A stretch of DNA of 20,988 nucleotides from a virus (taxonomy: Duplodnaviria; Heunggongvirae; Uroviricota; Caudoviricetes). The notes under the pieces were generated by a model. That model made no database searches, was not told the origin of the DNA, and was given only the letters and a program-made list of their open reading frames with translations. Location of the stretch: the IMG/VR virus record IMGVR_UViG_2778261588_000006, positions 1-20,988 of that record. One strand, written 5' to 3'. Of the stretch, positions 1,778 to 18,877 are shown in pieces. The stretch's first letter is position 1. Every line of letters begins with the position of its first letter. The translations under genes were made by a program, and so were the position numbers.

Positions 1778-1978
1778 TTACCCATTGGCGCGGCTTAAGA
1801 GCTTATTTTTGAATTCACAATGGTCACGATATAACCATCTTGCGCGTCCGTGGATAACTTTGGCTTTTGGCAGGTCGCCGGACTTAATCCGGTCATAGAT
1901 GAAGGTTTTACCGAAGCCAGTATCGGCCATGATGAATTTCAAATCAACCAGGGAATCAGGCTGTAGTTCGTGTTGCAT
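1778..1978 (-). CDS. torI: Excisionase / AlpA-family DNA-binding protein (TorI-like recombination directionality factor)
   Basis: 66-aa ORF with AlpA/Xis-like winged-helix pattern (TGFGKTFIYDRIKSGDLPKAKVI...GRARWLYRD); sits next to the att core; matches my recollection of KplE1 TorI in size and sequence, unverified. Confidence 0.6.
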   Translation of the reverse strand: MQHELQPDSLVDLKFIMADTGFGKTFIYDRIKSGDLPKAKVIHGRARWLYRDHCEFKNKLLSRANG

Positions 1979-2035
1979 GAGTGCTATCTCCGAATAGGGA
2001 ATCGAACCTGCAAATCAGGCAATAAAAAACCGCCA

Positions 2036-2203
2036 TCAGGCGTTTTTGTGTTCTTTCAGTTCTTCAATTCGAATATTGGTTACGTCTGCATGTGCTATCT
2101 GCGCCCATATCATCCAGTGGTTATAGCAGTCGTTGATGTCCTCTGCTTCGATAACTCTGTTGAATGGCTCTCCATTCCATTCACCTGTGACTCGGAAGTG
2201 CAT
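2036..2203 (-). CDS. Small hypothetical protein (55 aa)
   Basis: ATG preceded by GGAG SD at 7-nt spacing; co-oriented with neighbouring early-left genes; no recognisable domain. Confidence 0.35.
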   Translation of the reverse strand: MHFRVTGEWNGEPFNRVIEAEDINDCYNHWMIWAQIAHADVTNIRIEELKEHKNA

Positions 2204-2274
2204 TTATCATCTCCATAAAACAAAACTCGCCGTAGCGAGTTCAGATAAAAGAAATCCCCGCGAGTGCGAGGATG

Positions 2275-2559
2275 TTATTCATTGCCGATATTCACCTTTA
2301 TCGCGAACACCTTTACCGGTTTATCACCGAAGTGCGGATGTGTGATTGTCTTGATTTCATAGCCGCCATACGGAACGTCAATTCTGCGGCTGGAATCGTC
2401 ACGCTTCGGATATCCCTTTGTGATAATCAGGCGGTCATACTCCCGGAACATAATTCGCTTATTCCAATAGTCATTACACAGGCGATACTCTTCCGTTTTC
2501 TCTCCTCGAATCATGGCATCGAAGTATTCACCTTTGACGGCAAGTTGTAGGTTAGCCAC
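2275..2559 (-). CDS. Hypothetical phage protein (94 aa), possibly ASCH/PUA-like
   Basis: GTG start with AGGAGG SD 6 nt upstream; 8-nt overlap with upstream gene end; domain guess is weak. Confidence 0.5.
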   Translation of the reverse strand: MANLQLAVKGEYFDAMIRGEKTEEYRLCNDYWNKRIMFREYDRLIITKGYPKRDDSSRRIDVPYGGYEIKTITHPHFGDKPVKVFAIKVNIGNE

Positions 2560-2839
2560 GACCTTCCTCCTTTGGCTTGTGAATTTGTATCGTCATGCCG
2601 CTTTGAGTGGTGACTACAATGACAGAACCAGGCTGAAGGCTGTTAAGATTGAATGCTTCGTAAAACGAATCCAAGGCCAGCGCTTTTTTATTCTTTCGGT
2701 TCCACCAACGCCATCCCTTGCTACAGGCTACACTGACAATCCACTGTCCACTCCTGTAAGCCATATAAAACCAGATGAGCAAAACCTGAAGGAAGGCTAT
2801 CCAGTCAATAATCGTATATTTCGCGAAGGAGTCCATCAC
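2552..2839 (-). CDS. Hypothetical protein with N-terminal transmembrane helix (95 aa)
   Basis: ATG with AGGAGGTGA SD; hydrophobic segment IIDWIAFLQVLLIWFYMAY; 4-nt overlap with upstream gene. Confidence 0.5.
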   Translation of the reverse strand: MMDSFAKYTIIDWIAFLQVLLIWFYMAYRSGQWIVSVACSKGWRWWNRKNKKALALDSFYEAFNLNSLQPGSVIVVTTQSGMTIQIHKPKEEGRG

Positions 2840-3747
2840 TTCACCTCCTGCGGCGGTTCTGGTAGCGGCATCCAGTGTGTGACATTGCTAATCAGACCAT
2901 ATTCATTAGTTTGAGGATGGTTGCCGTTATCGTCTCCGTATTTAAGACTCTCCATAAAGCCATAATGCCTATCACCATTAACGCTCACAAAGCCGTAATA
3001 AGCAGGTATAACGCCGATCTCACACGTAACCAGTAAAGGAAAACTAGTTCTCCAATTTAGCTCGCCGATTACAGGCATTCGCTCACTACAGCTTATCCAG
3101 CCATCCGGAGTTACCGGATAGTTGCCCGATAGCGCATTACGCAATCGCTCCAGCTTCACGTATTCCTGAACCCTGTTTCCGTCGCATGCCTGAAGCCATT
3201 GCGCAGCCTTTTGCGCATCAGTGTGAAAGGCACAAGTGCGACCGTCATCAAATTGCATTTCGTAGAGGTCAGCAACTTGTTCAAACTGCGTATGTTGTGA
3301 CTTGTAAGTTTGGCTTACAGGTTCGGCACCATGAAGCATGGCGTCGCTCCGCTCTATGCCATCCAGCGCGATTCGCAGTGCCTGAATTGTGGTAGAGCTA
3401 TCGTTTGGGGCTATTCCATATCTCTCGAATACAGCTAAATGGTTGCGCATAATCTCAGGCGTAAGCTCTTTGTAAGCATAAGCAAGAGGCTCTGATGCAT
3501 TATCCGGCACAACCGACGCAGGCGCGGCAGCATAAACAGGAATAACGTCCGCTTGCTCTTTATTGCTTTCATCCGTTAAAGCCCAGAATAATTTCCCGGC
3601 CGGATGTTTGAAAATATAAGCAACTGGATCTGCTTCCAGCGATGCCAGCGCAATTCGTGCCAGTTCCATTTGTTCGCCACGGGTAAGCCCGTTTTCAAGC
3701 GTGGATTTAATGAACAATTCGATACGTTCTTTAGTGATAGCGCTCAT
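2836..3747 (-). CDS. DUF551-domain phage protein
   Basis: C-terminal WISCSERMP...THWMPLPEPP block typical of DUF551; start placed at MSAITK (3747) with AGGAG SD rather than the upstream in-frame ATG at 3789. Confidence 0.6.
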   Translation of the reverse strand: MSAITKERIELFIKSTLENGLTRGEQMELARIALASLEADPVAYIFKHPAGKLFWALTDESNKEQADVIPVYAAAPASVVPDNASEPLAYAYKELTPEIMRNHLAVFERYGIAPNDSSTTIQALRIALDGIERSDAMLHGAEPVSQTYKSQHTQFEQVADLYEMQFDDGRTCAFHTDAQKAAQWLQACDGNRVQEYVKLERLRNALSGNYPVTPDGWISCSERMPVIGELNWRTSFPLLVTCEIGVIPAYYGFVSVNGDRHYGFMESLKYGDDNGNHPQTNEYGLISNVTHWMPLPEPPQEVK

Positions 3748-5239: not shown

Positions 5240-5746
5240 TTAAATTGCGTGAATAGCGTGACGAGGGAAGGGGAGAGTTACTGGTGCAAAGGGTATATCG
5301 TCGTAAAAATCCATCGGAGGTTCGTTGTGTTGTGCAGGTGATGATTGCTGCTGTGGCTTCTGTGATTGCCTGCTGGCTGCTTGTTGTTTGCTGTCGCCAA
5401 TTCCGCCAAGCATTTGCATCACGCCATTAATTCCGACATGAACCTCGGTTGTGTAACGGTCTTGCCCTGACTGGTCTTTCCACTTTCTGGTTCTCAGCAT
5501 TCCCTCGAAATAAATCTGATCACCTTTTTTCACATACTGCCCCACAACCTCAGCCAGTTTCCCGGATACAGCAACACGATGCCATTCAGTCAATTCCTTT
5601 TGCTCGCCAGTATTTTTATCTCGCCATTGTTCTGACGTGGCTATTGTCAGGTTAGCGAACGCTGTACCTGATGGTGAGTATCGAACTTCCGGGTCTTGTC
5701 CTACCCGACCAAGGATAATCACCTTATTTATCCCGCGAGAACTCAT
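5240..5746 (-). CDS. ssb: Single-stranded DNA-binding protein (SSB) with C-terminal extension
   Basis: OB-fold SSB signature ([20 protein letters not shown]...TEWHRV), Gln/Pro-rich linker and acidic MDFYDDIPF tip; start at MSSRG (5746), overlapping the HNH stop as ATGA. Confidence 0.85.
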
Positions 5747-6210
5747 TTGCTCCACCTCTTGCCAGTTTTTATGTTGCTTATAATTGATTGAGATACACCC
5801 ATGTCTTTTGCTATCTTGTACTGACTCTCTTTTTCAGAGAGTCTTTTCCTAATTTCTATAACCTGCCACTCTGTTAATTTTGCACCATGATGAGCATGAC
5901 CTTTCTTGGCTCCACGATGCCTTCCTTTTGCTATCTTGTCGTCCATGTTTTCTTGCGCGCTACCTAAAAAGAGATGTTCAGGATTAACGCAGCATGGGTT
6001 ATCGCATTTGTGGCAAACCATCTTCCCAGATGGAATGGGGGAGTGATAAAGCTCAAAAGCAACCCGATGAGAAAGCATTGTTACGCCAAAGGCTACAAAT
6101 TTTGTGTATCCTCCTTTGTTTTTTGAATAGGTAGACTCCCAGCAACCTGTTGTTTCATTAACTTTGTAGCTGGACTCGAATCTTTTAATAATTCCGTCCA
6201 AGTGAGACAT
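5743..6210 (-). CDS. HNH endonuclease (HNH_3-type, homing-endonuclease-like) with C-terminal HTH
   Basis: [18 protein letters not shown] motif, His/Lys-rich segment, C-terminal helix-turn-helix-like tail. Confidence 0.8.
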
Positions 6211-10292: not shown

Positions 10293-11009
10293 TCAAACCA
10301 GTCTGAGTTTTGTCTCAATTGCAACGCCTATAATCTTGCAGTTTCCATTGATTGGCACGAGAGGCCATGCAGGATTAAGTCCCTTGAGGTATTTATTTCC
10401 GCCGTCGATTATCAGCTTCTTGAATGTTGCTTCGTTAGAGTCAGAAAGTTTTGCTATGACCAAGCTGCCGTTGATCGCCTCCCTTCCGGTATCGAAAAGA
10501 ACGAATGTTCCCTCTGGAATGCTTAACCCAACCGGTGCCGTCATTGAATCACCTTCCACTTTAAGCCAGAACGCATTACCTTGAATATGCGCGTCAGACT
10601 CAAGCCAAACATCTATGTCTTTAATGGTGTATGGTTCGCATGCTTCACACCACGAGCCAGCCTGGATACTGCTTAACACCGGATACCTCTTTCCTGCTCT
10701 GTATTCCCCTGCATACCTTACGTTGGCATCGCTCTTAAGGCTTTCTGCCTGTTCTGCAACCTTGGCAGCAATTGACTGGCTAAAATCAGCAATTGAGACT
10801 TGCAACAATCGTGCAAAACCAGATGCAACCTCAACGTTTAGCGCGTTTCTGCCATTAAGATAATGCCCTACCGCTCCTTGGGTGATACCCAGTTCATCAG
10901 CGATTGAGTATTGGGTTATTCCCAATTCTTTCTTTTTTGACTCATACAAAGCCTTAAGCCGCTTAGCGTCTTCGAGCTGTTCTGTCGTCAGTGATTTTTT
11001 ATTTTCCAT
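10293..11009 (-). CDS. cI: CI-type prophage repressor (HTH + S24 LexA-like peptidase domain)
   Basis: N-terminal HTH (LGITQYSIADELGITQGAVGHYLNG), EGDSM serine motif and downstream Lys; divergent from cro across operator dyads; no SD, consistent with leaderless PRM-type mRNA. Confidence 0.9.
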   Translation of the reverse strand: MENKKSLTTEQLEDAKRLKALYESKKKELGITQYSIADELGITQGAVGHYLNGRNALNVEVASGFARLLQVSIADFSQSIAAKVAEQAESLKSDANVRYAGEYRAGKRYPVLSSIQAGSWCEACEPYTIKDIDVWLESDAHIQGNAFWLKVEGDSMTAPVGLSIPEGTFVLFDTGREAINGSLVIAKLSDSNEATFKKLIIDGGNKYLKGLNPAWPLVPINGNCKIIGVAIETKLRLV

Positions 11010-11731: not shown

Positions 11732-12376
11732 ATGACATACGAAAATGACAAATTCCAGGTTCTGAAGAGCATGAAGGTGCCAGATGATTTTAAATCAAAT
11801 GGCTTTGTTTATGTGCTTTCGAATGAGTGCATGCCAGGAATTTATAAGATTGGGATGACTAAGCATTCACCAGAAGTTAGGGCTAAAGAAATTTCAGCCT
11901 CTACTGGCGTTCCTAAGCCATTTAAGGTGATAGCAGCCTTTCATTCAAATAATCCCGCATCAGATGAAAAACTCATTCATAAAGCCTTTGCAAAAGAGAG
12001 GCTTAGTGATAATCGAGAGTTTTTCAAGCTTGAAGATAATGATCTTTCTGAATCTCTAAATGAAATAAGGGCGCTGGTTGGCCCTGAACGAAATGGCGAG
12101 ACGGCAGAATACGCAATTTACGACTCATTCATTTCTTTTCGCCATGAAAATGAGCTTGATCTTAATGAGGAGCTTATAGAGCAAGGTCTGGGTAGTGTAG
12201 TTGGTCATCTTCCTGCGGTGAAAAATTTCCTTATTCGCGCCGGAATTGATTACGCGAAGCAACTGATAAGCAAATATAACTCATCGATAGTTATTAATAC
12301 AGATGGCAGTGTGGTGATGGTTAAGTCTCTTGAAGCCCAATGCTTTGATGCGGAGGTTGGAAATGAGCCTTGCTGA
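11732..12376 (+). CDS. T5orf172 (GIY-YIG-like nuclease) domain protein, 214 aa
   Basis: N-terminal GFVYVLSNECMPGIYKIGMT...EVRAKE matches the T5orf172/GIY-YIG pattern; CAGGAG SD; stop overlaps the O start. Confidence 0.65.
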   Translation: MTYENDKFQVLKSMKVPDDFKSNGFVYVLSNECMPGIYKIGMTKHSPEVRAKEISASTGVPKPFKVIAAFHSNNPASDEKLIHKAFAKERLSDNREFFKLEDNDLSESLNEIRALVGPERNGETAEYAIYDSFISFRHENELDLNEELIEQGLGSVVGHLPAVKNFLIRAGIDYAKQLISKYNSSIVINTDGSVVMVKSLEAQCFDAEVGNEPC

Positions 12377-13157
12377 AGTATTTTACCTGCCGAAGAGTGA
12401 ACCTGTTGAACAGGAGCGAAGAGTGGCTGATATCGATGATGGTTACACCAGATTCGCTAACGAGCTGCTGGAAGCTATCGCAAGTGCCGATTTAACCGCT
12501 CGCCAGTTGAAAGTTATGCTGGCCTACGTCCGGAAAACATATGGATTCAATAAGAAAACAGATCGAATAGCCGATGAGCAAATTGCTCAGTTAACAGGAC
12601 TGTCAAGGCAGAATGTTAACAAGGCTAAAAAAGAACTGATTTCAATGAATTGCCTGTTTATGGATGGAAATCAAATCGGTGTAAATAGGGAGGTATCTGC
12701 GTGGCAATTCAGCAAGTGTCTCCAAGTTAGCAACTTTGTCTCGAAGTTAGAGACACACAAAAGACATTCTTTAAAGACAAAAGAAAATATTAATAAACCC
12801 CCTATATCCCCCAAAAAAGTTTCTCAGAAGTTCGACCCGCTAGAAACAGAGTTGCCTGATTGGTTATCAGCAGAAATATGGTTGTCGTGGGTTACCTATC
12901 GCAAGGAGATAGGTAAGTCGATCAAGTCTAAGCAAAGTGTCACTCAGGCTATCAACGTTCTAAGCAGAAGTCTGGAGAAGGGATATACACCTGAAGAAAT
13001 TATAAACCAGAGCATCGCCAGTGGTTGGCAGGGTATTTTTGAGCCCAAGACTCCAAAGGGGAAATCTCAACCGAGGCCGCAGCATCGAGCTATGCAGGAA
13101 AACTTTGCCACCAAAGATTACGGACAAACTGAAATGCCTTCATGGGCGCAGGAGTGA
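12363..13157 (+). CDS. O: Replication initiator O-like protein
   Basis: N-terminal domain (RRVADIDDGYTRFANELLEA...LKVMLAYVRKTYGFNK) parallels lambda O; GGAGG SD at 6 nt; iteron-like repeats inside the gene. Confidence 0.7.
   Translation: MSLAEVFYLPKSEPVEQERRVADIDDGYTRFANELLEAIASADLTARQLKVMLAYVRKTYGFNKKTDRIADEQIAQLTGLSRQNVNKAKKELISMNCLFMDGNQIGVNREVSAWQFSKCLQVSNFVSKLETHKRHSLKTKENINKPPISPKKVSQKFDPLETELPDWLSAEIWLSWVTYRKEIGKSIKSKQSVTQAINVLSRSLEKGYTPEEIINQSIASGWQGIFEPKTPKGKSQPRPQHRAMQENFATKDYGQTEMPSWAQE
12719..12800. other. Putative replication origin inside O: iteron-like repeats TGTCTC(C/G)AAGTTAG at 12719 and 12739, then A-rich ACACAAAAGACA...AAAGAAAATATTAATAAA
   Basis: Second repeat is a dyad (TGTCTC...GAGACA); adjacent A/T-rich block resembles the lambda ori arrangement. 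Confidence 0.45.
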
Positions 13158-13159
13158 AC

Positions 13160-14005
13160 ATGACGCTGGATGAAAAGATCTCCCAACTGGAGAAAAAACT
13201 TGCAGAATTGAGTTCTCCGCCAATTGCTATCGAGCATACAGCTGTAGAAATTGGCACTGGCATCTGTGAAAAACATGGTGAGTTTGAGCAGCGTAACCGT
13301 TACTCGACTGGGCCAATTAAGTTTGCCTCAAGACCTAGCGAATGCCCGGAATGCATGAGAGATGAGCTTATTCGGCTACAGGCAGAGAAGATTAAAATCG
13401 ACGAAGAATCACGTAAGCGCAATGTCGAGTTTCTGTTGAATAATCTTGATATTCCTGAACGATTCAAGGGTTGCACACTACAGAACTACGAGCCAGTCAA
13501 CGACGATGCAAAGAGAGTGCTCAGGGTGTGTCAGGCATACGCCAACAAATGGCCTGAGAGGTTACAGAAAGGCGGTGGGCTGGTTATGTGTGGAAAGCCT
13601 GGTACTGGAAAGAATCATCTTGCACTGGCTATCGCCCGGCACGCAATTACGGAACATCAAAGCTCAGCTATTTTCACAACGGCGCTGAAAATTGCCAGAG
13701 AATATAAATCAACATGGTCGAAAAACTCCACCCGCACAGAGGATGAAGTGATCCGACAGTTCACTAAACCTGACCTGCTAATTATCGATGAGGTTGGTGT
13801 GCAGTTCGGAAGCGAGGCGGAAAAGATGATCATGTTCGAAATCATCAACACCCGCTACGAGCGCATGAAGCCAACAATCCTGATTAGCAACCAGAGCAAA
13901 GATGAACTGTCTGCATTCATTGGTGAGCGTGTTATTGACAGGATGAATGATGGCGGCGGGTGCACTCTTGCGTTTACATGGGATAGTTACAGGAGCAGAT
14001 CGTGA
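13160..14005 (+). CDS. DnaC-like helicase loader (IstB-type AAA+ ATPase), lambda P functional analogue
   Basis: Walker A GKPGTGKNHLALAIA and Walker B LLIIDEVG; ATG at 13160 with GGAGTGA SD. Confidence 0.8.
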   Translation: MTLDEKISQLEKKLAELSSPPIAIEHTAVEIGTGICEKHGEFEQRNRYSTGPIKFASRPSECPECMRDELIRLQAEKIKIDEESRKRNVEFLLNNLDIPERFKGCTLQNYEPVNDDAKRVLRVCQAYANKWPERLQKGGGLVMCGKPGTGKNHLALAIARHAITEHQSSAIFTTALKIAREYKSTWSKNSTRTEDEVIRQFTKPDLLIIDEVGVQFGSEAEKMIMFEIINTRYERMKPTILISNQSKDELSAFIGERVIDRMNDGGGCTLAFTWDSYRSRS

Positions 14006-14292: not shown

Positions 14293-14319
14293 CCATCTAC
14301 ATCACTGAGCTAATAACAG

Positions 14320-14346
14320 GGGCTATTTACACAGTAGCCCTTTTTT
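14320..14346 (+). terminator. Rho-independent terminator (GGGCTA-TTTACACAG-TAGCCC-TTTTTT), tR2-like position
   Basis: 6-bp stem, 9-nt loop and T6 run on the plus strand between the replication and nin modules. Confidence 0.6.
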
Positions 14347-14373
14347 ATTGGATTAAGAACGAGGGGGATCCTG

Positions 14374-14586
14374 ATGGACACCGTTAACGGAATGTGTTCA
14401 GACGCACCGCGTGCCAAAAAATGTAAATGCGGAAAATTACCGACAATATTCGACATGGAGAACGGGTGCCAAATCTACTGCGCTAACCACGCCGCTGTGG
14501 CGGCCGCGAATTATCGCAGTGCGGTAACGGAGTGGAATAACCTGAAATCTGTTAGAGAGGGAAGTCATGAAAAAACTAACCTTTGA
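14374..14586 (+). CDS. Hypothetical Cys-rich small protein (70 aa)
   Basis: GAGGGGG SD 6 nt upstream; C-x-C...C...C pattern; overlaps ninB start. Confidence 0.4.
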   Translation: MDTVNGMCSDAPRAKKCKCGKLPTIFDMENGCQIYCANHAAVAAANYRSAVTEWNNLKSVREGSHEKTNL

Positions 14587-15007
14587 AATTCGATCTCCGG
14601 CACATCAGCAAAACGCTATTCACGCAGTACAGCAAATCCTTCCAGACCCAACCAAGCCAATCGTAGTGATCATTCAGGAGCGCAACCGCAGCTTAGACCA
14701 GAATCGGAAGCTTTGGGCTTGCCTTGGTGACGTCTCTCGTCAGGTTGAATGGCATGGGCGTTGGCTGGATGCAGAAAGCTGGAAGTGTGTGTTTACCGCA
14801 GCATTAAAGCAGCAGGATGTTGTTCCTAACCTTGCCGGGAATGGCTTTGTGGTAATAGGCCAGTCAACCAGCAGGATGCGTGTAAGCGAATTTGCGGAGC
14901 TATTAGAGCTTATACAGGCATTCGGTACAGAACGTGGCGTTAAGTGGTCAGACGAAGCGCGACTGGCTCTGGAGTGGAAATCGCGATGGGGAGACCGGGC
15001 AGCATGA
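14567..15007 (+). CDS. ninB: NinB (Orf) recombination protein
   Basis: Sequence is near-identical to lambda NinB as I recall it ([31 protein letters not shown]...). Confidence 0.9.
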
Positions 15008-15177
15008 TGCGATGTTATCGGTGCGGTGAATGCAAAGAAGATAACCGCTTCCGACCAAATCAACCTTACTGGAATCGATGGTGTCTCCGGTGTGAAAGAA
15101 CACCAACAGGGGTGTTACCACTACCGCAGGAAAAGGAGGACGTGTGGCGAGACAGCGACGAAGTATCACCGACATAA
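15004..15177 (+). CDS. ninD: NinD
   Basis: [34 protein letters not shown]... matches lambda NinD; ATGA overlap with ninB stop. Confidence 0.8.
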
Positions 15178-15320
15178 TCTGCGAAAACTGCAAATACCTT
15201 CCAACGAAACGCTCCAGAAATAAACGCAAGCCAATCCCGAAAGAATCTGACGTAAAAACCTTCAATTACACGGCTCACCTGTGGGATATCCGGTGGCTAA
15301 GACATCGTGCGAGGAAATGA
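15144..15320 (+). CDS. ninE: NinE (GTG start)
   Basis: Frame encodes [56 protein letters not shown], matching lambda NinE; GGAGGA upstream; overlaps ninD 3' end out of frame. Confidence 0.6.
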
Positions 15321-15724
15321 CAATGCTTTTAATTCAACCTGGATTTGGACTTAGCATCAAAAAAGGCCACATGTTTGGCGAGAAAGAGTCACAACGAAAA
15401 ATGGTGTCTATCCGGTTGCCATTTATCAGTATTTATTGGCTAAACAGGGAGGCAACAAATTATTGGTATACATGCGCCAGAGCAGCATTTAACGACCCTG
15501 ACTGGTTTGTGAAAAACCACCACGCAGTTCGTCAGGCAAAGAGAAAGGCCAACATGACATACATGAAGGCGTATCAAAAAGCATGGAAAGAACACCGCGA
15601 TCGATACCAGCAAGACATGGAAAAGCTTGAATCAGAAAACATGGAATTAAGACGAAAGCTTGGTGAAGCAAAACGAGACATTGATGCTTACAAGCGACTT
15701 TTTAATGGTGAAAGCCATGCTTAG
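15317..15724 (+). CDS. Hypothetical protein (about 135 aa) with C-terminal coiled coil, inserted between ninE and ninF
   Basis: ATG overlapping ninE stop (ATGA); no equivalent gene in lambda at this position; start uncertain. Confidence 0.45.
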
Positions 15725-15893
15725 TCCATCCCAATCTCTTCAATACCAGAAAGAAAGCGTCGAGCGGGCTTTAACGTGCGCTAACTGCGGTCAGAAGCTG
15801 CATGTGCTGGAAGTTCACGTGTGCTCCGATTGCTGCGCAGAACTGATGAGCGATCCGAATAGCTCAATGTACGAGGAAGAAGACGATGAATGA
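15717..15893 (+). CDS. ninF: NinF
   Basis: [36 protein letters not shown]... matches lambda NinF. Confidence 0.8.
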   Translation: MLSPSQSLQYQKESVERALTCANCGQKLHVLEVHVCSDCCAELMSDPNSSMYEEEDDE

Positions 15894-16608
15894 GTTAATA
15901 AATGGCAATGCCATCAAAATGACAAGCATTGAAATCGCTGAGTTGGTGGGTAAGCGTCATGACAATGTGAAACGTACCATCGAAACGCTGGCTAAAAATG
16001 GTGTTATCCGGCTTCCTCAAATTGAGGTTTCCGAAAGAATCAATAACTTAGGGTTCAATGTTCAGTACGAGCATTACGTCTTCGAAGGCGAACAAGGTAA
16101 GCGCGACAGCATTATTGTCGTTGCCCAGTTGTCGCCGGAATTCACCGCTCGTCTTGTTGACCGTTGGCGAGAGCTTGAAGAAACTGCGGTTAATATCCCC
16201 AAAACGCTACCAGAAGCGTTGCGCCTTGCTGCTGATCTTGCTGAGCAGAAAATGCAACTGGAAAACCAGCTCGCAATTGCCGCACCTAAAGTTGAGTTTG
16301 CCGATCGAGTTGGCGAAGCCAGCGGAATTTTGATTGGAAACTTTGCAAAGGTTGTTGGAATTGGTCCAAACAAACTGTTTGCGTGGATGCGCGATCACAA
16401 AATCCTTATTGCTTCAGGTTCCCGGCGCAATGTGCCAATGCAGGAATATATGGATCGCGGCTATTTCACAGTGAAAGAAACAGCGGTCAACACAAATCAC
16501 GGAATACAGATATCGTTCACCACAAAAATCACCGGTCGTGGTCAACAGTGGCTGACCAGAAAGCTGCTCGATAACGGAATGCTGAAAGTAACAGGGGAGG
16601 CTGCTTAA
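15886..16608 (+). CDS. Antirepressor (Rha-type N-terminal domain + ANT/KilAC C-terminal domain)
   Basis: N-terminal MTSIEIAELVGKRHDNVKRTIE (Rha-like) and C-terminal EFADRVGEASG...FAKVVGIGPNKLFAWMRDHKIL (Ant-like); ATGA overlap with ninF. Confidence 0.75.
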   Translation: MNELINGNAIKMTSIEIAELVGKRHDNVKRTIETLAKNGVIRLPQIEVSERINNLGFNVQYEHYVFEGEQGKRDSIIVVAQLSPEFTARLVDRWRELEETAVNIPKTLPEALRLAADLAEQKMQLENQLAIAAPKVEFADRVGEASGILIGNFAKVVGIGPNKLFAWMRDHKILIASGSRRNVPMQEYMDRGYFTVKETAVNTNHGIQISFTTKITGRGQQWLTRKLLDNGMLKVTGEAA

Positions 16609-16898
16609 TGGCTAACCTACGCAAAGAAGCGCGCGGCAGAGAATGTCAGGTACGTATTTACGGCGTATGCAATGGTAATCCTGAAACCACAGTTCTGGCA
16701 CATTACCGGATGGCTGGAATTTGCGGAACTGGAATGAAGCCTGACGACCTGATCGGCGCATGGGCTTGTAGCGCGTGTCACGATGAAATCGACCGACGCA
16801 CCCATAATCTCGACAACAAAGACGCCAGGCTTTACCACCTCGAAGGCGTGATCAGGACGCAGTCGATACTGCTGAAGGAGGGGAAGATTAAGTCATGA
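16608..16898 (+). CDS. DUF1364 / YbcO-like zinc-binding protein
   Basis: 96-aa Cys/His-rich protein directly upstream of rusA, as ybcO-rusA in DLP12; assignment from memory. Confidence 0.55.
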   Translation: MANLRKEARGRECQVRIYGVCNGNPETTVLAHYRMAGICGTGMKPDDLIGAWACSACHDEIDRRTHNLDNKDARLYHLEGVIRTQSILLKEGKIKS

Positions 16899-17257
16899 AC
16901 GAATATCAGTTTGTGCTTCCGTACCCGCCATCGGTGAATACCTACTGGCGAAGACGAGGAAGCCAATATTACATTAGCGATAAAGGCCAGAAATACAGAA
17001 AAGACGTTCAGCAAATCATCCGCCAACTTAAGTTAGACATTTTCACCAAATCACGACTCCGCATAAAAGTCATCGCAGACGTTACAGACTCCCGCCGCCG
17101 CGACCTCGATAACATCCTGAAAGGTTTACTCGACTCCCTTATCCACGCCGGATTTGCGGAAGACGACGAGCAATTCGATGACATTCGCGTAATTCGTGGT
17201 GTGAAAGTAGCAGGCGGACGGCTTGGAATAAAAATCACCGAACTGGAGAACGCATGA
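16895..17257 (+). CDS. rusA: RusA Holliday-junction resolvase
   Basis: Pattern LPYPPSVNTYW...RRRDLDNILKGLLDSL...GGRLGIKITE parallels E. coli RusA; occupies the ninG slot. Confidence 0.85.
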   Translation: MNEYQFVLPYPPSVNTYWRRRGSQYYISDKGQKYRKDVQQIIRQLKLDIFTKSRLRIKVIADVTDSRRRDLDNILKGLLDSLIHAGFAEDDEQFDDIRVIRGVKVAGGRLGIKITELENA

Positions 17258-17442
17258 ACGCCACAATTCAAACGATACCAGAGCTTCTTATCCAGACACG
17301 AGGCAATCAGACCGAAGTGGCGAGGATGCTTTCCTGCGCAAGAGGAACAGTGCTCAAGTACAACCGAGACAGCAAAGGCGAGCGTCATGTAATAGTTAAC
17401 GGCGTCCTGATGGTCAAACAAGGAAAGAGGGGAAGACGATGA
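17254..17442 (+). CDS. ninH: NinH-like protein
   Basis: IPELLIQTRGNQTEVARMLSCARGTVLKY...VNGVLMV parallels lambda NinH. Confidence 0.7.
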   Translation: MNATIQTIPELLIQTRGNQTEVARMLSCARGTVLKYNRDSKGERHVIVNGVLMVKQGKRGRR

Positions 17443-17957
17443 GCATAAGAGAACTAAACCTCACCAAAGAGCAGCACGAGTGGCTGAATGGCTGGCTTGA
17501 ACTGTGGGGCGCATGGGTTTATTCAGGTCGACTGGAAAAGCGCATGAGCAGCGTAATAGCGAAGTTCATGGAGAGCGTAGAGCCGGGAAGAGTTATGACA
17601 AGGCCAATGTGTAATGATGATGATGGAATGTTGATTTCTCAGGTCGTCGATTCCGTCATGTGCATTGACAAGAAAGCCTTTGGCATCCTCCTCAGCTACT
17701 ACGCTCATGGTTCATCTAAGCGAGCAATTGCATCCTACTATCACGCGACTGCAAAGCCACGCAAGATGTGTGGACGTGGTGGCGAGGGATGGAGAAAACC
17801 TTCACTGGCAACCTGTAGAAACGAAATTGACGACATCCTGAAAGCGTCATTATTTGTTTTATACCAGCCAATGCAAAATGCTTTCAAAATGCGTAAACGT
17901 GTTGAGAAAGTTAAGCATGTTGCTGTTAAAAGCCTTGACATGCAATTAGCCATTTAG
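17439..17957 (+). CDS. Q: Late-gene antiterminator Q (QuuD / non-lambda Q family)
   Basis: Positioned between ninH and the lysis cassette; WGAW and RPMCNDDD motifs resemble QuuD-type Q as recalled; unlike lambda Q. Confidence 0.6.
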   Translation: MSIRELNLTKEQHEWLNGWLELWGAWVYSGRLEKRMSSVIAKFMESVEPGRVMTRPMCNDDDGMLISQVVDSVMCIDKKAFGILLSYYAHGSSKRAIASYYHATAKPRKMCGRGGEGWRKPSLATCRNEIDDILKASLFVLYQPMQNAFKMRKRVEKVKHVAVKSLDMQLAI

Positions 17958-17964
17958 CCATAAT
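17935..17964 (+). promoter_or_regulatory. Candidate late promoter PR' (-35 TTGACA 17935-17940; -10 CATAAT 17959-17964, 18-bp spacer)
   Basis: Consensus -35 and near-consensus -10 straddling the Q stop codon, where lambdoid late promoters lie. Confidence 0.35.
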
Positions 17965-17973
17965 TAGAAGGTA

Positions 17974-18017
17974 AGCTGCCGTTAGTGACTCTTAAGTTGC
18001 AACGGTGGCTTTTTTTG
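17974..18017 (+). terminator. Candidate tR'-like intrinsic terminator (stem 17974-17983 / 18001-18010, then T7 run)
   Basis: About 10-bp stem (two G-U pairs) with large loop followed by TTTTTTTGTTTG; about 35 nt downstream of the candidate PR' start. Confidence 0.35.
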
Positions 18018-18040
18018 TTTGCACAACAGGTAAGAGCATT

Positions 18041-18090
18041 GCGCGCCTGACGAGTCCATGAGGGACGAAACGCATTAGCGTCGCGCGGAG
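18041..18090 (+). ncRNA. Hammerhead self-cleaving ribozyme motif (type I topology)
   Basis: Core CUGACGA 18047-18053; stem II GUCC 18054-57 / GGAC 18063-66 (loop AUGAG, G10.1-C11.1 pair); GAA 18067-69; stem III ACGC 18070-73 / GCGU 18078-81 (loop AUUA, A15.1-U16.1 pair); cleavage triplet GUC ending at C 18082; stem I CGCGC 18042-46 / GCGCG 18083-87. Every invariant core position is satisfied. Confidence 0.6.
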
Positions 18091-18532
18091 TATCCCCAGC
18101 CGGGGAATAACTGGATACCAGGGGAGACAACCCTAAGCGCATTTACGAGTGTGTTTAGGGCGTGGGTCGGCAATGACTCCCTGTGCAGCCGACATCTGGC
18201 CCGGCAACATACAGTGCTCTTTCCGTTGTGCTGAATTAAGCGAATACCGGAAGCAGAACCGGATCACCAAATGCGTACAGGCGTCATCGCCGCCCAGCAA
18301 CAGCACAACCCAAACTGAGCCGTAGCCACTGGCTATCCTGAATTCATCAGTGATAGTTATGCTGCGGCCTTCTACACATGACCTTCGTGAAAGCGGGTGG
18401 CAAGAAGTTGCGCTAACAACCTCCTGCCGTTTTGCCCGTGCATATCGGTCACGAACAAATCTGATTACTAAACACAGTAGCCTGGATTTGTTCTATCAGT
18501 AATCGACCTTATTCCTAATTAAATAGAGCAAA

Positions 18533-18548
18533 TCCCCTTATTGGGGGT
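18533..18548 (+). promoter_or_regulatory. sdi-like stem-loop (CCCC-TTATT-GGGGG) upstream of the S dual start
   Basis: Hairpin immediately 5' of ATG-AAG-ATG, as in lambda where it sets the S107/S105 ratio. Confidence 0.55.
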
Positions 18549-18553
18549 AAGAC

Positions 18554-18877
18554 ATGAAGATGCCAGAAAAACATGACCTGTTGGCCGCCATTCTCGCGGC
18601 AAAGGAACAAGGCATCGGGGCAATCCTTGCGTTTGCAATGGCGTACCTTCGCGGCAGATATAATGGCGGTGCGTTTACAAAAACAGTAATCGACGCAACG
18701 ATGTGCGCCATTATCGCCTGGTTCATTCGTGACCTTCTCGACTTCGCCGGACTAAGTAGCAATCTCGCTTATATAACGAGCGTGTTCATCGGCTACATCG
18801 GCACTGACTCGATTGGTTCGCTTATCAAACGCTTCGCTGCTAAAAAAGCCGGAGTAGAAGATGGTGGAAATCAATAA
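18554..18877 (+). CDS. S: Holin S (class I, dual-start S107/S105)
   Basis: [39 protein letters not shown]... is essentially lambda S as recalled; Met1-Lys2-Met3 dual start. Confidence 0.95.

Follow-up and report, generated by a model that had tools for sequence, protein, structure and literature searches.

The segment around ninF probably belongs to the nin region of an E. coli prophage of the lambdoid type (P22/HK022-like) and has the mosaic make-up that is ordinary there, with two independent accessory modules flanking ninF. One module carries a gene for an uncharacterised phage protein, which we call ORF133/135 after the lengths given by its two possible starts, and the other is roi. Neither gene is new, and the whole block is already annotated in VT1-Sakai, H-19B, mEpX2, HK629, Gally, and E212. 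The ninE-orf-ninF-roi block is present in 171 of 5,426 complete E. coli genomes (about 3%). We worked with a window of 20,988 nucleotides, the whole stretch of DNA analyzed, and all of the biochemical activities that we ascribe to Roi and ORF133/135 are ones that we infer.

The genes of the segment lie on the plus strand. The gene ninE (58 aa; 15144-15320; Pfam NinE, E=3.3e-45) is followed by ORF133/135 (15323-15724), then by ninF, encoding a zinc-ribbon-like protein of 58 aa (15717-15893; Pfam NinF, E=8e-14), by roi (240 aa; 15886-16608), and by ybcO, a DUF1364 putative nuclease gene that adjoins roi downstream (16608-16898; Pfam YbcO, E=2.2e-44). The order ninF-roi-ybcO-rusA-ninH-Q of HK022 is the order found in the window. 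An earlier note on this DNA had stated that lambda carries ninE-ninF-ninG without either extra gene, and comparison with lambda confirmed this. The window does have an open reading frame between ninE and ninF, with 133 aa when read from 15323 and 135 aa from the in-frame ATG at 15317. The comparative alignment of nin regions that the note proposed upheld both genes as extra relative to lambda, but it also placed roi in the identical slot in HK022 and mEpX2.

When the DNA of the window was aligned jointly with that of HK022 and mEpX2, an insertion or replacement module of ~426 bp relative to HK022 could be delimited (15318-15743, plus strand). The module holds ORF133/135 together with the first 9 codons of ninF and replaces ~27 bp of HK022; on the ninE side, homology between the window and HK022 extends to position 15317. 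The proposal that both extra genes are translationally coupled to their neighbors agrees well with the junctions, all of which overlap or nearly abut. The ATG at 15317 overlaps the ninE stop codon as ATGA, the stop of ORF133/135 and the start of ninF share 8 nt, as do the stop of ninF and the start of roi, and the roi stop and the ybcO start have a single nucleotide in common (TAATG).

A signal search gave promoter and terminator matches at or below the number expected from shuffles, with none at 15180-16250 on the plus strand. No LexA box was found anywhere in the 20,988-nt window, and an Rfam scan across the whole window detected no RNA families. The segment is transcribed within the PR delayed-early operon, under CI and N control. 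Both genes had been described as cargo, but in the sense of morons this reading fails because neither has transcription signals of its own, whether promoter or terminator; in addition, their starts and stops overlap those of the neighboring genes.

The surroundings of ORF133/135 in other phages were examined in IMG/VR. Wherever downstream sequence was present, ninF lay directly 3′ of the close relatives of ORF133/135, and across 80 close loci ninF was the sole constant partner. Because roi followed ninF in only about 35 of the 80, we consider ORF133/135 and roi to be independent modules. The neighbors of distant relatives were unannotated small early genes, sometimes with DUF1367, YbcO, RdgC, or methylases, and no gene association in these distant contexts was informative on the function of ORF133/135. 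In PY54, a relative is present without an adjoining ninF. The slot between ninE and ninF is occupied by NinX in P22 and by Ant plus an ORF133/135 gene in Stx phages; this junction is a recurrent site for unrelated accessory genes.

Sequence comparison identifies the 240-aa protein as Roi, orthologous to the HK022 protein of that name (Clerget & Boccard 1996). The two proteins aligned over their full length with 213 of 241 residues identical (88%; BLASTP, E=1e-158), and the window protein matched phrog_63 (E=1e-99). From residue 64 to the end there was a single substitution, T100A, and the differences were concentrated at residues 22-63. Two domains were recognized, a Rha-type domain at aa 12-99 (15919-16182, plus strand; Pfam PF09669, E=3.5e-9, above the gathering score) and an ANT/KilAC domain at aa 126-228 (16261-16569, plus strand; Pfam PF03374, E=7.7e-33); a PDB sequence search found no related solved structure at E up to 1. 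HK022 Roi has the same pair of domains, the same slot between ninF and ybcO-rusA-ninH-Q, and an IHF consensus at the same nucleotide of the gene, 152; the difference is that the window carries another allele of aa 22-63, only 38% identical to HK022 there.

The same-slot gene is annotated as roi in mEpX2, HK629, and H-19B, as well as in HK022 and many Stx phages, and its position in the P-Q interval, between ninF on one side and ybcO/rusA or ninG on the other, is shared by HK022, mEpX2, and 35 IMG/VR loci. Annotations of roi occur in HK97-type phages, mEpX2, HK629, H-19B, CUS-3, and Stx phages, and in Stx prophages the gene is sometimes disrupted by IS629. The larger gene can thus not be kept as unexplained cargo: it is roi, which is named, has been studied experimentally, and sits in the same slot in HK022, mEpX2, HK629, and H-19B. 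Profile searches, which had been suggested for both proteins, gave a divided answer, in that the small protein belongs to a family without an assigned function (phrog_1511), while the large one is a named nin-region gene.

The reported binding site of HK022 Roi lies in roi itself, with an IHF site alongside. Secondary citations implicate Roi in lytic growth and IHF dependence and describe it as a DNA-binding protein, and the Rha family is described as detrimental to lytic growth without IHF. Given the orthology with HK022 Roi, the window protein would most likely recognize DNA within roi, adjoining an IHF site. Its action would depend on host IHF, and in a host without IHF Roi would be expected to block lytic growth. 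Specificity for DNA would reside in the cassette at aa 22-63, and the near-invariant KilAC half would serve to contact another protein, perhaps one of the SOS/RecA system by analogy with AriS of Listeria.

This hypervariable cassette (15949-16074, plus strand) was delimited from per-segment identities and DNA alignment. Among 26 distinct Roi proteins, it occurred as at least 5 alleles in genes that were otherwise 95-100% identical, and the allele of the window is also found in H-19B and in many E. coli prophages. If the cassette sets DNA specificity, the target sequence of this Roi may differ from that of HK022. Within roi, a pattern search located a predicted IHF consensus, AATCAATAACTTA, at 16038-16050 on the plus strand. 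AATCAATAACTTA was the only exact match to WATCAANNNNTTR in the 21-kb window, but a mean of 1.19 such matches is expected by chance in 21 kb. In each of the five cassette alleles, that of HK022 among them, the predicted site lies at the same nucleotide of the gene; only the position and the conservation of the motif are suggestive. Even the conservation could reflect protein constraint, since the motif overlaps the conserved peptide I-N-x-L-G. We found no convincing dyad or direct repeat that might serve as a Roi operator in the variable cassette of the five alleles. If the operator of Roi lay in this stretch, the ~126-bp patch around the invariant IHF site would encode both the part of Roi that reads DNA and the target of that part, and Roi would thereby define phage-specific “Roi types”, a reading that we regard as improbable.

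We considered two other accounts of Roi. In the first, Roi would be a dual regulator resembling AriS, with the Rha half tuning genes of its own phage and the KilAC half dampening host SOS/RecA. In AriS of Listeria, the ANT/KilAC domain does not inactivate a repressor but dampens the SOS response (PMC9043618). The two-part architecture of AriS-like proteins includes a variant with pRha at the N-terminus (PMC9043618), and Roi shares this architecture through its pRha domain at aa 12-99 and its ANT domain at aa 126-228. Phage “antirepressors” of Listeria, Staphylococcus, and Streptococcus aligned to Roi aa 99-235 with 35-39% identity, and a near-invariant KilAC half next to a varying N-terminal cassette is what would be expected for a conserved host target. 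AriS itself, however, has an AntA/B N-terminus and is distant from Roi, the KilAC part of Roi being about 35-39% identical to its Gram-positive phage homologues. The activity is moreover known just from Listeria, on overexpression, and deletion mutants had wild-type SOS transcription (PMC9043618). We think this account unlikely; it is nevertheless compatible with the orthology-based explanation and may be a part of it.

In the second account, which we rate lower and regard as improbable, Roi would be a true antirepressor whose ANT/KilAC half binds and inactivates a CI-type repressor, either that of its own prophage, encoded at 10293-11009 in the window, or that of a heteroimmune co-resident one. 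With PR open, it would reinforce the commitment to lysis or cross-induce neighboring prophages. The earlier note had read the gene after ninF as a two-domain antirepressor. The Rha plus ANT architecture stands, but an antirepressor activity would follow from a Pfam or PHROG name only: Roi has a Pfam ANT domain and matches phrog_63, “anti-repressor Ant”, and its PGAP name is “phage antirepressor KilAC domain-containing protein”. Ant1/2 of P1 and P7 do carry these domains (PMC9043618), and antirepressors that act in trans and coordinate prophages are known in Salmonella (PMC3121763). The location of roi argues against this role. The gene lies inside the early operon controlled by the repressor and N and has neither a promoter nor a terminator nor a LexA box to itself; it therefore cannot start the induction of its own prophage. 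The P22 ant gene, unlike roi, has dedicated control elements, namely its own promoter, Arc and Mnt operators, the sar antisense RNA, and a terminator.

The proteins differ as well. Roi is unrelated to Ant of the P22/Phi24B type; P22 Ant and the nin-region Ant of Phi24B and P27 combine ORF6N with P22_AR_C, whereas Roi combines Rha with KilAC and in Pfam matched Phage_pRha and ANT only, with no P22_AR domains. What Roi has in common with the P22, Phi24B, and P27 proteins is the functional word in their annotation, and, in Stx phages, the operon that contains roi also encodes Ant, two genes further upstream. Even for that Ant, a deletion in Phi24B, where it lies in the nin region, left superinfection immunity unchanged. 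The HK022 orthologue has been described as binding DNA and as having a phenotype linked to IHF, and the only KilAC activity that has been tested is SOS inhibition (PMC9043618). An effect of Roi on co-resident prophages is possible.

Turning to the smaller protein, the ATG at 15323, giving 133 aa, is more likely than that at 15317 to be the conserved start, judging from the sequence upstream and from homologues. A GAGG lies 8 nt upstream of 15323 and just 2 nt upstream of 15317, and distant homologues, along with most database entries, begin at the equivalent Met. ORF133/135 is a real gene under purifying selection, because its homologues remain full-length down to about 20-25% identity and pN is well below pS, both against mEpX2 (0.019 versus 0.078) and against Tbat2_3 (0.23 versus 0.78). 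VT1-Sakai H0039 has exactly the same sequence (100% identity), as do proteins of Stx1 phage and ECP1. In the PHROGs collection it matched phrog_1511 over positions 1-133 of 133 (E=1.6e-86) and phrog_8749 with E=1.3e-6, and among its diverse relatives 38 of 38 matched the former and 33 of 38 the latter. ORF133/135 is thus a plain member, with no difference from H0039 or from these families of unknown function. The family is confined to phages, ranging over temperate enterobacterial phages and their relatives. No family was assigned by Pfam, NCBIfam, or PADLOC, in which there was just sub-threshold coiled-coil noise. Its absence from lambda, HK022, and P22 shows that the gene is dispensable.

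AF2 models of ORF133/135 reached a pLDDT of 76 and then 91. The protein consists of a basic N-terminal beta/alpha domain, a conserved junction (DPxW-x2-N-x3-VRxAKxKA), and a C-terminal coiled coil, and has a pI of 9.8. The description of the protein as a coiled coil was supported: residues 67-127 form a helix in the AF2 model (mean pLDDT 91), and the residues in heptad positions a and d are M/M/W/Y/M/L/N/L/L/A/I/Y/F. A Foldseek search of PDB with the predicted fold gave no match with E<1, and in BFVD the fold matched just itself and unnamed small proteins. Most likely, ORF133/135 would be a dimeric accessory factor that binds nucleic acid or protein in early lytic development, built from a small beta/alpha head, a conserved basic helix, and a coiled coil of ~50 residues. 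Binding to nucleic acid would be our guess from its charge and architecture.

Another possibility, which we consider unlikely, is that ORF133/135 is a host-takeover, anti-defence, or exclusion factor whose coiled coil binds a protein of the host or of a competitor phage. Its variable slot, which holds unrelated accessory genes in other phages, would suit such a factor, as would its dispensability and its range among temperate enterobacterial phages and their relatives. Against this, the PADLOC matches were coiled-coil noise alone, the gene lacks the promoter of its own that is typical of exclusion genes expressed in the lysogen, and the distant gene contexts described above were uninformative.

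There is still less reason to regard ORF133/135 as a bZIP-like transcription factor, with the basic helix on DNA and the C-terminal zipper as a dimerization element, and we find this improbable in spite of several suggestive matches. Some database entries in its 90% cluster bear the automatic name “bZIP”, and profile searches matched C/EBP chains in PDB with E values of 0.4-2. We ran hhalign with eight bZIP sequences, controls, and heptad-preserving shuffles. The comparison with C/EBP-beta gave a probability of 67% and a score of 31, while the shuffles scored 13 ± 2.7 and 0 of 150 reached the real score. C/EBP-type proteins resemble ORF133/135 in having a basic helix that leads into a leucine-zipper-like coiled coil, with the shared patterns NxxAVRxxK/R and EN..L..K....R.....L.., and N65, V/I69, R70, and K/R73 are kept across distant relatives of ORF133/135. 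The alignment with C/EBP, however, requires a gap of 12 residues, an insertion that breaks the fixed spacing between basic region and zipper, and the basic motif is therefore 2 residues out of register with the heptads. ORF133/135 also has an extra N-terminal beta/alpha domain.

The spacing rule for bZIP proteins, an invariant Asn 18 residues before the first Leu at a d position, does not hold in ORF133/135, and N65 falls at heptad position b instead of g. Compared with the bZIP signature N-x2-A-A-x2-[CS]-R, the family has a conserved K/R but no conserved Ala at N+3. Scores against GCN4, Jun, Fos, CREB, and ATF4 were no higher than those against tropomyosin or Lpp, so that the likeness to other bZIP subfamilies is no greater than coiled-coil background; only C/EBP rose above the coiled-coil controls, with most of the score coming from the zipper part alone. 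Pfam bZIP models matched none of 23 family members at E up to 10. We rejected membership in the bZIP family on the basis of the broken register, the restriction of the signal to C/EBP, and the lack of Pfam matches. P22 NinX, whose gene likewise lies between ninE and ninF, was also rejected as the identity of ORF133/135, as its sequence is unrelated (hhalign probability 0.3%) and belongs to its own Pfam family, PF10765, which ORF133/135 did not match.

For the annotation of lambdoid phages, the segment calls for caution, in that “antirepressor” should not be read from the name of an ANT/KilAC domain when the gene is roi. It also raises the question of what role the phrog_1511 protein plays, given that its fold is predicted with confidence and has no known relatives. 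A further question, with a bearing on Stx prophages, is why aa 22-63 of Roi vary around a fixed IHF motif. If the patch does encode both the DNA-reading part of Roi and its target, Roi types would give lambdoid phages a second specificity system akin to immunity and might serve discrimination between self and non-self among co-infecting or co-resident phages.

The window is the early region of an E. coli prophage, a mosaic lambdoid of the P22/HK022-like kind. On the plus strand it carries O (12330-13157), a DnaC-like P (13142-14005), ninB (14567-15007), ninD (15007-15177), ninE (15144-15320), a small ORF ending at 15724, ninF (15717-15893), a 240-aa ORF (15886-16608), ybcO (16608-16898), rusA (16895-17257), ninH (17254-17442) and Q (17439-17957), with holin and endolysin genes downstream. 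The order in lambda is ninD-ninE-ninF-ninG-ninH, so the small ORF and the 240-aa ORF are both extra relative to lambda, as an earlier note on this DNA had claimed. The sequence also bore out its account of the junctions: the ninE stop overlaps an ATG at 15317 (ATGA), the small ORF overlaps ninF by 8 nt, ninF overlaps the 240-aa ORF by 8 nt, and the latter shares one base with ybcO. Between cII and O lies a 214-aa ORF with a T5orf172/MUG113 (GIY-YIG-like) domain (11732-12376, plus strand), where lambda has no gene, and the early-left operon holds an HNH endonuclease gene (HNH_3; 5743-6210, minus strand) between an SSB gene and a Rad52/Erf-type annealing gene. The window starts with a complete, CscB-like LacY-family sugar symporter of 415 aa (1-1248), and an AlpA/Xis-like ORF (1778-1978, minus strand) follows about 530 bp beyond it. 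No integrase or tRNA was found between these two in positions 1-1978, and it seems that int is missing from the left end of the prophage, or that this end was remodelled beside a sugar-uptake gene.

Pfam placed Phage_pRha at residues 12-99 and ANT/KilAC at residues 126-228 of the 240-aa protein, in agreement with its earlier description as "Rha-Ant". A megablast search of phage genomes matched the 1.8-kb stretch to E212, Gally, mEpX2 and HK629 at 93-97% identity, and gave a shorter match, extending to the end of the 240-aa gene, to H-19B and many Stx phages at 95-98%. These genomes label the gene Roi or "DNA-binding protein Roi". Its product is 88% identical over its full length to the Roi protein taken from the HK022 genome, where roi has the same neighbours in the same order (ninF-roi-ybcO-rusA-ninH-Q). 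By sequence comparison we identify it as Roi, the orthologue of HK022 Roi. The ninE-orf-ninF-roi segment is an already-known, common arrangement of roi and a conserved orphan gene; of 5,426 complete E. coli genomes, 171 contained the complete block and 2,309 had parts of it.

A pattern scan of positions 14300-18600 found no promoter-like or terminator-like sites above shuffle expectation, and the sole promoter or terminator match on the coding strand within the segment was a weak promoter (9/12, at 15149). The lack of signals of their own argues that the small gene and roi are part of the PR delayed-early transcript and are not autonomously transcribed morons. The strongest promoter match in the scanned region (TTGACA-18-CATAAT, 11/12; 17935-17964, plus strand) lies across the end of Q and probably represents PR'. 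At 14318-14342 (plus strand), upstream of the nin genes, a 10-bp stem is followed by a T-run in the position of a tR2-like terminator.

The small protein was 100% identical to hypothetical proteins of VT1-Sakai (H0039), an Stx1 phage and ECP1, 82-87% identical to those of Salmonella P22-like phages, 69% to that of a bat-gut siphovirus and 46% to that of Yersinia PY54. These homologues, with pN far below pS in every comparison, show that the small ORF is a real gene. It had been put at roughly 135 aa; the ORF stands, and a length of 133 aa from ATG 15323 is more likely, since GAGG lies 8 nt upstream of 15323 and merely 2 nt upstream of the alternative at 15317. The distant homologues and most database entries start at the equivalent methionine. 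In the H-19B record (AF034975.3; 1670-2068) the gene is unannotated, and its tblastn match is split in two, suggestive of either a frameshift or a mistake in early sequencing.

We aligned the region with that of HK022, a comparison that the earlier note had proposed, and found that positions 15318-15743 (about 426 bp; the small gene and the first nine ninF codons) cleanly replace about 27 bp of HK022. The ninE/ninF junction holds nothing in lambda or HK022, the unrelated ninX (PF10765; nin-region locus 1998-2336) in P22 and the phrog_1511 gene in the window; the use of the slot by ninX marks it as a recurrent insertion point. P27 carries, as Stx phages do, an ORF6N/P22_AR_C Ant and a phrog_1511 gene at this junction (nin-region locus 1945-3095). 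Among 80 IMG/VR loci with a 97-100% identical small gene, ninF was directly downstream, and ninE (or Ant in Stx phages) upstream, wherever that sequence was present. Roi followed ninF in only about 35 of the 80, with ybcO or ninG there otherwise; the small gene and roi are therefore independent modules that here happen to flank ninF. In temperate phages and phage-plasmids, distant relatives of the small gene occupy early accessory regions like this one, among uninformative neighbours.

Profile searches, also proposed earlier for both proteins, gave named domains for Roi but only uncharacterised families for the small protein: it belongs to phrog_1511, to which phrog_8749 is distantly related, neither family having an assigned function, and no family in Pfam, NCBIfam or PADLOC fitted it. 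Only 58 related clusters emerged when 1.8 billion representative proteins were searched exhaustively by profile, and full-length members (about 125-140 aa) share a common layout. AlphaFold2, run on a 38-sequence alignment, gave a confident model (mean pLDDT 91) with a predicted four-stranded sheet (2-40), a helix (42-57), a short helix (59-65) and a long helix (67-127). Conservation peaks at the junction (G19, W61, N65 and the motif DPxW-x2-N-x3-VRxAKxKA), the pI is 9.8, and heptads run along the long helix between about residues 80 and 129. As a guess from this architecture, the most likely role is that of a basic accessory factor that acts as a dimer and binds either nucleic acid or other proteins.

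In its 90% cluster, the automatic names of some UniProt and NCBI entries read 'bZIP domain-containing protein' or 'bZIP transcription factor'. C/EBP bZIP chains came up as weak matches in a profile search of the PDB (E 0.4-2), and hhalign against C/EBP-beta gave a probability of 67% and a score of 31, above all of 150 heptad-preserving shuffles (13 ± 2.7). Most of that score came from the zipper half, the alignment needs a 12-residue gap that shifts the basic motif by two residues from the bZIP-defining register, Pfam bZIP models gave no match, and GCN4, Jun, Fos, CREB and ATF4 scored no better than tropomyosin or Lpp. We rejected bZIP membership on these grounds, and the automatic label is unsupported; a loosely bZIP-like working (basic helix and dimerising coil) is a low-probability possibility.

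The earlier note had also suggested that the Rha-Ant protein acts as an antirepressor, a role that we consider improbable. The domain name alone speaks for it. P22 ant is served by a promoter and a terminator of its own, by Arc and Mnt operators and by the sar antisense RNA, whereas roi has none of these, and its start codon lies inside ninF; no LexA box was found anywhere in the window. A gene transcribed only once repressor has left PR cannot start induction of its own prophage. After induction, Roi might conceivably act in trans on other prophages. Roi is unrelated to P22-type Ant, and the Stx-phage Ant two genes upstream of roi differs from it in domains (ORF6N and P22_AR_C); in Phi24B, deletion of this Ant left superinfection immunity unchanged (PMC3064807). 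The only ANT/KilAC domain with tested activity, that of Listeria AriS, lowers the SOS response, probably via RecA, and the variable N-terminal domain of AriS-like proteins (AntA/B, Bro-N or pRha) controls genes of the phage itself (PMC9043618). Roi has exactly this two-part architecture. Overall, the observation of two extra genes was confirmed and its interpretation partly upheld, with the antirepressor reading, and cargo in the sense of a moron, left unsupported.

The differences between the window and HK022 Roi proteins were clustered: residues 1-21 and 64-240 are essentially identical, while residues 22-63 are only 38% identical. This cassette (15949-16074), which we infer to begin where the Rha-type domain is predicted to recognise its target, has at least 5 alleles across 35 roi-bearing loci, with the rest of the gene 95-100% identical; among 26 distinct Roi proteins, its alleles were 36-100% identical to that of the window and the other residues 95-100%. 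The KilAC half is nearly invariant, and such a pairing with a variable cassette would suit a protein with two targets, one conserved in the host and the other a DNA site specific to the phage.

Across the 21-kb window, the IHF consensus WATCAANNNNTTR is matched exactly just once, within roi (16038-16050), a count that is uninformative against a chance expectation of 1.19. The motif stands at nucleotide 152 of roi in all five cassette alleles, HK022 included, with AATCAAT...TTAGG kept; the same Ile, Asn and Leu codons recur there while codons beside them vary. Since it overlaps a conserved I-N-x-L-G peptide, protein constraint may be an alternative cause of its conservation. The conserved position and codons are consistent with binding by Roi near an IHF site: Clerget and Boccard reportedly described, in 1996, a Roi site within its own gene near an IHF site, with IHF stabilising the binding. 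[quoted passage not shown] By analogy with its HK022 orthologue, Roi would most likely act through IHF-modulated DNA binding inside its own gene, perhaps with a KilAC-mediated host contact added. Neither the hypervariable cassette around a fixed IHF site nor the small protein's confident fold, which has no known relative, makes the finding surprising, but each might repay a small experiment.
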